Positions 31,793 to 32,953 of a stretch of DNA of 43,534 nucleotides are shown one piece after another. The notes beneath the pieces are model-generated. The model made no database searches. It was not told the DNA's origin and was given only the letters and a program-made list of their open reading frames with translations. Source of the stretch: a virus; UHGV virus genome UHGV-0803811; one strand, 5' to 3'. The translations under genes and the position numbers were made by a program. How positions within the stretch are numbered: position 1 is the stretch's first letter; every line of letters starts with the position of its first letter.

Positions 31793-31820
31793 ACAAAGAA
31801 AACCCGGCACTGAGGCCGGG
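31793..31820 (-). terminator. intrinsic terminator ending the cI-linked operon
   Basis: Minus-strand RNA hairpin cccggc-cucagu-gccggg followed by UUUUCUUUG, 6 nt after the ORF-B stop. Confidence 0.6.
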
Positions 31821-31826
31821 TGTGTA

Positions 31827-32510
31827 TTAGGGGGTTGAGACTCCAGAGAGCAATCCGTAGATTTTATATACAGTAAATGCTAATGCTGGCAAGCCAAGGG
31901 CCCATTTGATTATATCAAGCTTAACATCACTAAGCTTACCTTCTAACTTTGCCTCTTGAACAGAAAGAGCTGCATCGATCTTTTTTGATTGGGAGTCAAG
32001 GGCACTCTCAATTCTACTCGATTGTATGTCCAGACGACTGTTGATTTGTTCGTGCTGAGTAACAACTAAATGCTTCATCTCCTTTATATCTGAAGCCATT
32101 AGTTCACGCCATTTGGCCATATCAGCCTGCATTTTTGAGGCCACTGCATCCACTTCAGCTTTATTTGCCTTCAGAAGTGCCTGTATTTCGTTTCTGCTCA
32201 AATCGGACATTGCGGTTCCCTGTATAGGAGTTTCCTCGTACGGTGGGATAACATTAGATTGTCCTTTACAATCGGCAACCCCTCCTTTATCTACGATTGT
32301 AGCAGTTAGCTGGGAATTGGTCGCATCATCCACCATGTTTTTTGGTGAATAAGAGGAAATAGGCGTAGAAAACAGATTACCTTTTGCTGTTTCCATGAAC
32401 ATCATGAAATCGCGAGTATTAACGTTATTCAGGGAAACTTGCAGTGGTTTAACAATACTTGATGTTTTGTAAGTAATAGTTAAATCACCTACTTCTTCCG
32501 GTTGTTGCAT
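31827..32510 (-). CDS. unrecognised protein B: N-terminal domain + long coiled coil + C-terminal hydrophobic anchor
   Basis: 227-aa ORF; ATG overlaps the stop of ORF-A (TAATG); heptad-like region NEIQALLKANKAEVDAVASKMQADMAKWRELM...; C-terminus IIKWALGLPALAFTVYKIYGLLSGVSTP. Confidence 0.6.
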   Translation of the reverse strand: MQQPEEVGDLTITYKTSSIVKPLQVSLNNVNTRDFMMFMETAKGNLFSTPISSYSPKNMVDDATNSQLTATIVDKGGVADCKGQSNVIPPYEETPIQGTAMSDLSRNEIQALLKANKAEVDAVASKMQADMAKWRELMASDIKEMKHLVVTQHEQINSRLDIQSSRIESALDSQSKKIDAALSVQEAKLEGKLSDVKLDIIKWALGLPALAFTVYKIYGLLSGVSTP

Positions 32511-32830
32511 TACGACTTCGCTCCATTAGAGTTTTGTGCCTCTAATTGTTCGAAAAGAAGAACTATATTCTCTTGAAGAGCCTTTAGTTGTGCCATTGGC
32601 ATTATCACAGTGCATTGCTGATTGAGTTCATTTACAGAGCCTATCTGCATATTCGCTCTACCTGGTTGATCTGGTATATCATTTTGGGATAGTACCGCAG
32701 GTATTGACTTGTTTGCGATAAAATGTATACAAATGAGATTTTTTTCCGCTCCCGGTAGTGGAGCAAAACTAGCGAAGTCCGCATAGGTTTCAATATAATC
32801 CACAGATGGTTTAATTTTGACCGGTTCCAT
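32510..32830 (-). CDS. unrecognised small soluble protein A, co-transcribed downstream of cI
   Basis: 106-aa ORF from an ATG 5 nt after GAGAGG (track ORF extends to 32845); 123 bp downstream of the cI stop on the same strand. Confidence 0.55.
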   Translation of the reverse strand: MEPVKIKPSVDYIETYADFASFAPLPGAEKNLICIHFIANKSIPAVLSQNDIPDQPGRANMQIGSVNELNQQCTVIMPMAQLKALQENIVLLFEQLEAQNSNGAKS

Positions 32831-32953
32831 AACGCCTCTCATCAAATATTGTAGGTTTTTTAATTCAATGTGTTAAATGTTGGTGGTGTGTTATTTAAAG
32901 TTATTTTGACATCCTCCACGCCCTGAAGGACGGGGCTTGTCGCGTACTTGAAG

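Follow-up and report, generated by a model that had tools for sequence, protein, structure and literature searches.

Two coupled genes lie behind cI in a lambdoid prophage

Within the 43,534-nucleotide stretch of UHGV virus genome UHGV-0803811 analyzed here (hereafter the window), two small genes, which we call A and B, lie directly behind a cI-like repressor gene, and an initial annotation made from the letters of the DNA had put them forward as a candidate prophage exclusion or defense system. Both open reading frames (ORFs) are present on the minus strand where that annotation had placed them, A at positions 32510 to 32830 (106 aa) and B at 31827 to 32510 (227 aa), and in identical prophages RefSeq carries the same two coding sequences as WP_000433877.1 (321 nt) and WP_048970231.1 (684 nt), respectively. 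The proposed TAATG stop/start overlap can also be seen in the sequence, with one base common to the stop codon of A (TAA) and the start codon of B (ATG). For A, the ATG at 32830 is the correct start, since this is also where the homologues in other genera begin, and a TTG at 32845 was rejected as an over-extension. The pair is kept across Escherichia coli, Klebsiella, Enterobacter, Yersinia, and Providencia, and the ratio of nonsynonymous to synonymous substitution rates (dN/dS) ranges from 0.07 to 0.31 for A and B where dS is unsaturated. By these measures, both are genuine genes under purifying selection, and they are paired beyond chance.

The genes belong to the immunity and early region of a lambdoid prophage, which covers about 30.5 to 36 kb of the window. 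Upstream, the backbone of the slot is formed by the cI-like repressor gene (32954 to 33661, minus strand), which is of the 933W immunity type and encodes HTH_3 and Peptidase_S24 domains (Pfam S24 E value of 4.8e-16). Downstream, the slot is closed by a terminator-like hairpin with a T-run, located by scanning at 31792 to 31821 on the minus strand and equivalent to lambda timm. The initial annotation had assigned A and B to the rexAB position, and the gene order bears this out, since it is that of lambda (cI-rexA-rexB-timm-oL/pL-N): like rexA and rexB, the two genes come after cI, lie before timm, oL/pL, and N, and are carried on the cI strand.

The same scan gave no terminator-like site in the interval between cI and A, a spacer of 124 nt, and co-transcription of the pair with cI is plausible from this arrangement. 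The spacer also contains a sigma70-like promoter candidate (TTAACA-17-TACAAT; 32848 to 32876, minus strand), which lies about 18 nt ahead of the start codon of A and has 10 of 12 consensus matches, so read-through from cI may not be the sole expression route.

The pair forms a discrete, exchangeable cassette

To map the borders of the insertion, sister prophages bearing other cargo (L012, L013, and L014) were compared with the window by blastn, and a megablast comparison was made in addition. In the blastn alignments, backbone homology ends at 31820/31821 and picks up again at 32949, while the megablast break falls at query position 1500, which is window position 32949, 5 nt past the cI stop codon. 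These homology breaks set the edges of a 1127-bp cargo cassette (31822 to 32948, minus strand) that consists of the spacer, A, and B. The sequence common to the prophages with other cargo extends through 31821, and the terminator is therefore backbone and not cargo. The initial annotation had given the pair a terminator of its own, a view that has to be given up, and the terminator was likewise rejected as a cargo part, being conserved in prophages that carry something else.

Among 5426 complete E. coli genomes, 40 contain the DNA of the A-B module, and none of the deposited phage genomes does; the same cI, 96 to 98% identical, is found in more than 1000 E. coli genomes that lack A-B. The interval between cI and N has been described as a mosaic hotspot holding rexAB and bstA (PMC8585504). 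At the junctions used by A-B, the O157 or 933W-type prophages carry a DUF3024 gene, a hypothetical gene, and a Ser/Thr kinase gene (L012 1368-3445, E. coli O157 AR-0429), in which the kinase matches the PADLOC PD-T4-6 models and the DUF3024 protein matches the PADLOC candidate PDC-S43. This Stk module thus sits at exactly the same junctions behind a 95 to 98% identical cI, but its proteins and chemistry are wholly different from those of A-B. The 933W Stk kinase reportedly excludes phage HK97.

Base composition gave a milder picture than the earlier view of AT-rich acquired cargo. The GC content is 39.6% for A, 41.1% for B, 45.5% for cI, and 49.8% for the window, and the GC content at third codon positions (GC3) is 0.32, 0.36, and 0.42 for A, B, and cI, respectively. 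The two genes are thus lower in GC and the cassette is exchanged, as that view had it, but the effect is mild, and the whole immunity region is AT-rich, not the cassette alone. The homology breaks show A-B to be a separate unit of cargo that moves by horizontal exchange and occupies the hotspot between cI and pL of a lambdoid prophage with 933W immunity.

Two further kinds of cargo were observed behind an almost identical cI, namely, a single unannotated 299-aa protein (L014 2477-3376) and a pair of 120 aa and 42 aa (L013 2389-2895), and both are likewise uncharacterized candidates.

In the cI-A spacer, a stretch of 31 nt (32905 to 32935, no strand assigned) that contains an imperfect hairpin is 100% identical to a spot in the 933W moron region. 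Its counterpart lies inside L0135, near a YgiW-like gene and hokW/sokW, and is present in 933W, 43 other Stx-phage records, and one plasmid. It could represent a recombination joint common to these elements, or else a small element with a hairpin. As a terminator, the spacer hairpin was rejected, because it is without a U-tract and the folding energy of the spacer (z = -0.16 against shuffled sequence) is no better than that of the shuffled controls.

B looks like a tail-anchored membrane protein with a conserved stalk

The AlphaFold2 model of B, built with a 28-sequence alignment, begins with a head made of a β-hairpin (residues 7 to 31) and a helix (32 to 48), with a predicted local distance difference test (pLDDT) score of about 85. 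A linker predicted to be disordered follows (52 to 98; pLDDT < 50), and from 103 to 222 the chain forms a single unbroken helix (pLDDT 77 to 95), which comprises the neck and stalk (103 to about 200), with the invariant motif MSDLxRxE..LKANKAEVDAVA..M..DMAKWRE, and the C-terminal anchor (about 203 to 221). An N-terminal globular region of roughly 100 residues had been proposed for B; an ordered head does exist, but it takes up only about 50 residues, and 52 to 98 are disordered. Similarly, the long helix stands, but the heptad-like coiled coil assigned to it does not hold strictly: the hydrophobic periodicity is 3.65, the value of hendecads, and four clear 11-residue repeats can be recognized at about 155 to 198. 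The most hydrophobic stretch of the protein is its final ~20 residues (WALGLPALAFTVYKIYGLL), and from the sequence and the model B looks like a tail-anchored membrane protein. In the window's B, about 6 residues follow the anchor, while distant members have a Q/P-rich tail past the anchor, which would extend into the periplasm.

By comparing the members of the B family, we found that the head and linker are variable and that two other segments are near-invariant, the stalk start (MSDLxRxE.QALLKANKAEVDAVA..M..DMAKWRE) and the anchor region (DIIKWALGLPALAF.VYKIYG). The invariant stalk residues are E108, A111, L113, K117, E119, V120, A124, M127, M131, W134, R135, and E136. Residues 101 to 137 and 199 to 219 are conserved beyond what a plain coiled coil or anchor needs, which suggests a specific binding or gating site.

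Such conservation may be read in terms of superinfection exclusion without cell death, in which B, at the cytoplasmic face of the inner membrane, would together with A obstruct the channel or the host proteins on which the entry of phage DNA depends, in the manner of P22 SieA, T4 Imm, and HK97 gp15. The unusually conserved anchor and membrane-proximal helix would fit contact with a conserved host membrane protein, the Q/P-rich tail of the distant members would reach the periplasm, and the evidence from position and gene linkage applies here just as it does to an abortive-infection system. However, the B protein of the window is almost wholly cytoplasmic, with so few residues past the anchor, which is unusual for an injection blocker; in addition, no similarity to any Sie protein was found, and a separate sieB gene lies nearby. 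We consider this explanation unlikely.

The C-terminal two thirds of B matches the Pfam CCDC90-like/DUF1640 family (PF07798) with 27.5 bits, below the gathering cut-off of 33.5, and the match spans profile positions 63 to 167 of 175. PF07798 is matched by 25 of the 28 B-family members at E ≤ 0.01 (best E value of 7.3e-7), and some RefSeq copies are named "CCDC90 family protein." DUF1640 proteins are membrane proteins of prokaryotes and mitochondria in which a β-layer motif marks the beginning of the C-terminal stalk (PMC4786415), and the DLSRNEI of B at the start of its stalk resembles, when compared by eye, the DUF1640 β-layer N-cap (PMC4786415). Like the proteins of this family (MCUR1, CCDC90B, and the prokaryotic members), B appears to be laid out as a head, a neck, a stalk, and a C-terminal anchor, but the match is weak throughout the family, whose prokaryotic members are functionally uncharacterized. 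It seems that B is at best a peripheral DUF1640/CCDC90-like member. In PHROGs, B falls in phrog_14825, of unknown function, and in PADLOC it matches only HEC-07 over the coiled coil (E value of 0.009, 12.5 bits). The B-family profile found no relatives among PDB sequences, and a Foldseek search of the PDB with the B model gave nothing below an E value of 1.9. According to the initial annotation, neither protein belonged to a nameable family, which is right as far as RexA, RexB, and the PADLOC families are concerned but misses the weak CCDC90/DUF1640 likeness of B.

A cytoplasmic helical region followed by a C-terminal anchor is also the architecture of ElaB, YqjD, and YgaM, which are C-tail-anchored proteins of E. 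coli. B could by this likeness be a membrane scaffold that alters host physiology (stress or stationary-phase tolerance), with A as its adaptor, and the pair would then serve lysogenic conversion unrelated to phages. The DUF1640/CCDC90 family is without defense annotation, and most of the listed carriers were isolated from humans, one of them from a rectal swab, which would suit such a role. Against it, the Pfam scan at E ≤ 1 gave no ElaB/DUF883 match, members of the family occur only at prophage moron sites, and the partner gene turns over fast, as described below, which is more typical of conflict systems. On balance, lysogenic conversion appears rather improbable.

A is a small acidic protein whose predicted fold may be COMM-like

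A is a soluble, acidic protein (pI 4.75). In its AlphaFold2 model (pLDDT 82.8), a strand (19 to 24) precedes a long β-hairpin (32 to 51 and 59 to 78) and a C-terminal helix (79 to 102), which together make a small β3-α fold that appears COMM-like; the resemblance is modest and is taken as a lead only. The COMM domain, a β3-α fold that forms intertwined dimers, occurs in COMMD1-10 and in bacterial COMMD-like proteins. COMM domains are oligomerization modules (PMC13392464), and the likeness suggests for A a role in assembly or as an adaptor, not an enzymatic one. By sequence, A is not a COMM-domain protein: it had no match in Pfam at E ≤ 1, and its family profile had none among PDB sequences. 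PHROGs, PADLOC, and NCBIfam gave no match for A either, and no DNA-binding signature was detected in the Pfam and PDB-sequence profile searches. Against viral predicted structures, Foldseek returned only two uncharacterized proteins (E value of ~2e-3). The A family is tiny: 5.8 billion proteins yielded 11 full-length clusters, and a profile search of 1.84 billion proteins yielded 19 representatives. In tblastn searches of 50,697 phage records, A had no match, and B matched only HK244 and HK542.

B is always preceded by a partner gene, whose type varies

To follow the linkage of the two genes, we collected 42 B-family loci from encoding-contig look-ups, 27 IMG/VR contigs, HK244, and the window. 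A small same-strand gene abuts or overlaps the start of B in all of them (42/42), and its product measures 87 to 165 aa, apart from one of 281 aa. A clear A-family partner is found in 24 of the 42 loci; eight more (L021, L033-35, and L045-48) show an A-like sequence pattern with weak hidden Markov model (HMM) scores, probably giving 32 in total.

In other loci, the partner is of a different type. A β-rich protein of 131 to 165 aa precedes B in HK244/HK542, in L010, in L032, and probably in L037; the genes lie at 1472 to 1906 of the HK244 locus (L003), 4526 to 4999 of L010, 3456 to 3887 of L032, and 3457 to 3954 of L037. This partner family has no Pfam, PADLOC, or NCBIfam match, and the B proteins beside it are without the N-terminal head seen in A-partnered B. 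In L039, L040, L042, and L044, the partners are zinc (Zn)-ribbon proteins; those of L039 (3526 to 3921), L042 (3523 to 3900), and L044 (3559 to 3879) have paired CxxC motifs and precede distant B-type genes.

HK244 and HK542, which have lambda immunity, offer the closest comparison on record. Like A-B, their HK24405-HK24404 genes form a two-gene module in the rexAB slot, followed in HK244 by an annotated Timm. HK24404 has a neck, stalk, and anchor homologous to those of B (30% identity, E value of 4e-11), but it is without a head, has a longer tail past the anchor, and is annotated only as hypothetical; HK24405, a β-rich protein of 144 aa, is unrelated to A. Such genes have thus been on record in the slot as hypothetical proteins since the deposition of these phages, and the earlier statement that neither protein resembles any family is imprecise on this count as well, a related pair having already been deposited.

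Where the partner is of the A type, the two proteins diverge together, the identities of A and of the B head co-varying with r = 0.74 (45 pairs). Co-divergence, as well as the translational coupling of a small upstream gene to a membrane protein, would also be compatible with an addiction pair of the toxin-antitoxin (TA) kind, in which A would act as the labile antidote to a membrane toxin, B, and which would stabilize the prophage. However, A and B have no similarity to known TA families, and with 227 aa and a coiled coil, B is far longer than the known small membrane toxins. We rate an addiction pair as quite improbable; in its mechanism it would overlap with abortive infection, and the two readings are compatible.

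The genomic context of the pair is equally consistent. A repressor gene lies upstream in most loci, with Peptidase_S24 in 22 of 33 distinct neighbors and HTH_3 in 22 of 33, and the backbones bearing the pair include lambda-like, P22-like, and Rac-like ones with YdaS/YdaT as well as Yersinia and Providencia prophages. In some loci, the spacer from repressor to partner is down to 18 to 50 nt, too short for a separate promoter, which argues for an operon with the repressor. The initial annotation had asked whether homologues always sit behind repressors; most of them do (the 22 of 33 with S24), but an A-B pair at L007 (375 to 1385), 46 to 48% identical to that of the window, lies beside tail-fibre and tail-tip (gpJ-like) genes instead of a repressor gene, which indicates that the cassette moves between moron sites. 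From these comparisons, it is established that A-B is a mobile, conserved, co-evolving two-gene cassette of prophage slots of the kind expressed in lysogens, above all of the slot behind the repressor.

The tie to the repressor gene in many backbones could mean that A-B serves the prophage's own cycle, acting on the lysogeny-lysis switch, on induction timing, or on lysis, with no foreign-phage target. A precedent may be seen in RexA and RexB, which are reported to act on the lambda bistable switch and, according to a bioRxiv preprint, assist the lysogeny-to-lytic transition (10.1101/2021.04.19.439022). However, the same cI works with wholly different cargo or with much smaller genes, and the switch therefore does not need A-B. 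Also, A is acidic and without a DNA-binding signature, and the L007 pair lies away from any repressor, beside the tail-fibre genes. A role in the prophage's own cycle is improbable in our estimation.

Comparison with known exclusion systems

Apart from their position, A-B and lambda RexA/RexB have in common that they comprise two genes, one for a soluble and one for a membrane protein, and that expression in the lysogen is expected. RexAB is characterized by the exclusion of T4 rII and other phages through membrane depolarization. The proteins themselves differ. RexB is a multi-pass membrane protein, whereas B is anchored only once, at its C terminus, after a stalk of 100 residues. A is acidic and only 106 aa long, unlike RexA, for which one published account gives the description of a DNA-binding protein (PMC11077077). 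BstA, the abortive-infection protein of the Salmonella BTP1 prophage, lies downstream of cI, presumably shares the promoter of the repressor, and has a terminator of its own behind it (PMC8585504). Its place behind cI is that of A-B, but BstA is a single large DNA-associated protein and not a membrane pair, and no similarity was found. The published prophage-defense systems HepS and TerI were also considered and proved unrelated to A-B. By these comparisons, A-B is an uncharacterized protein pair in a known accessory/exclusion hotspot and not a RexAB member.

A proposed membrane-based exclusion module

Position and architecture only lead us to propose, tentatively and with slightly less than even confidence, that A-B is a two-component membrane-based exclusion or abortive-infection module expressed in the lysogen. 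That the pair has some anti-phage role, with exclusion without cell death counted in, we consider fairly probable. In the proposed mechanism, the cassette would be transcribed by read-through from the cI promoters, from its own sigma70-like promoter, or from both. B would sit in the inner membrane as a tail-anchored oligomer, probably trimeric, and most of it would be cytoplasmic, and A, oligomeric through its COMM-like fold, would bind the cytoplasmic head of B and either keep B inactive or couple it to a phage cue. Upon infection by a heterologous phage, the complex would change its state, and B would then compromise the membrane, by a RexB-like depolarization, or block a membrane step, so that the invader fails. 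Conservation is highest in the stalk and anchor of B, and the partner and head are variable, which fits a constant effector with variable recognition parts.

Several observations weigh against the exclusion/abortive-infection proposal. Position gives a prior only, since slots expressed in the lysogen also hold non-defense genes. No defense-family match was obtained for A or B in PADLOC-DB v2 or among the defense families of Pfam and NCBIfam, and the Rex families are absent among the Pfam, PHROG, PADLOC, and NCBIfam matches of the two proteins. In the literature on DUF1640/CCDC90 in phages and prophages, on the RefSeq accessions, on HK542, and on anti-phage proteins with a tail anchor, no account of the function of A-B was found. 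The hydrophobic C-terminal anchor credited to B from the beginning does coincide with its most hydrophobic stretch, but the hydrophobicity is moderate, with a best 19-residue Kyte-Doolittle mean of only 1.36 and a lysine inside the segment, so that membrane insertion of this marginal anchor is uncertain. Even if a trimer is formed, its three transmembrane (TM) helices make no obvious pore. The head of B and the A family show no similarity in hhalign (probability 2%), which indicates that A is not a detached copy of the B head. Finally, matches to the sigma70 consensus are no more frequent in this region than in shuffled sequence.

A broader form of the exclusion proposal is that A-B founds a modular prophage defense class, in which a constant DUF1640/CCDC90-type stalk effector would be combined with interchangeable sensors (the COMM-like A, the β-rich HK244 type, and the Zn-ribbon type). 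We regard this as possible but rather doubtful. If it were true, it would give a first function to the bacterial DUF1640 proteins and a bacterial role to the COMM-like fold.

The slot between cI and pL in lambdoid prophages has already yielded proven exclusion systems (rexAB, Stk, and BstA), and here it holds a compact 1.1-kb cassette with sharp junctions and two proteins outside the characterized defense families. Should the pair be protective, it would represent a new membrane-acting system with a constant effector and a variable partner, and A-B would offer a tractable bacterial entry into the DUF1640/CCDC90 family. As a rare cassette in mostly human isolates, some of them with carbapenemase-type strain names, it could matter for the phage susceptibility of those strains. 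Although unknown cargo in this slot would not surprise a specialist, A-B is a good experimental candidate, since it is easy to test, belongs to a modular family, and has a link to DUF1640.

Neighboring genes of the immunity region

The rest of the immunity region follows the lambdoid plan, with cro, cII, O, and P to the right of cI and pL/oL, nutL, N, and sieB to the left. The antiterminator gene N (31103 to 31375, minus strand) lies leftward of pL, on the left side of the immunity region, and was recognized by its ORF and an arginine-rich N terminus; in an identical prophage, its RefSeq name is "transcriptional antitermination N peptide." A boxB-like hairpin is also present left of the terminator. 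In the oL/pL region, an operator-like repeat at 31598 to 31613 (no strand assigned) belongs to a direct repeat family, D1, with relatives at 33657 to 33672 and 33713 to 33728 (oR).

Beside N, on the plus strand, lies the superinfection exclusion gene sieB (30505 to 31086; SieB family PF14163, Pfam E value of 1.1e-25; phrog_1301). In Pfam, neither A nor B matches PF14163; only this neighboring gene does. The immunity region thus already has one recognized exclusion gene besides A-B.

Farther left, an IS2 element (IS3 family; GC content of about 55%) occupies about 28220 to 29550, with transposase ORFs at 28267 to 28677 and 28635 to 29540. It sits in the leftward early operon, adjoining the kil/cIII/DUF2528 genes, and is absent from the closely related prophages L001 and L014, so that functions of the pL operon may be impaired in this prophage.

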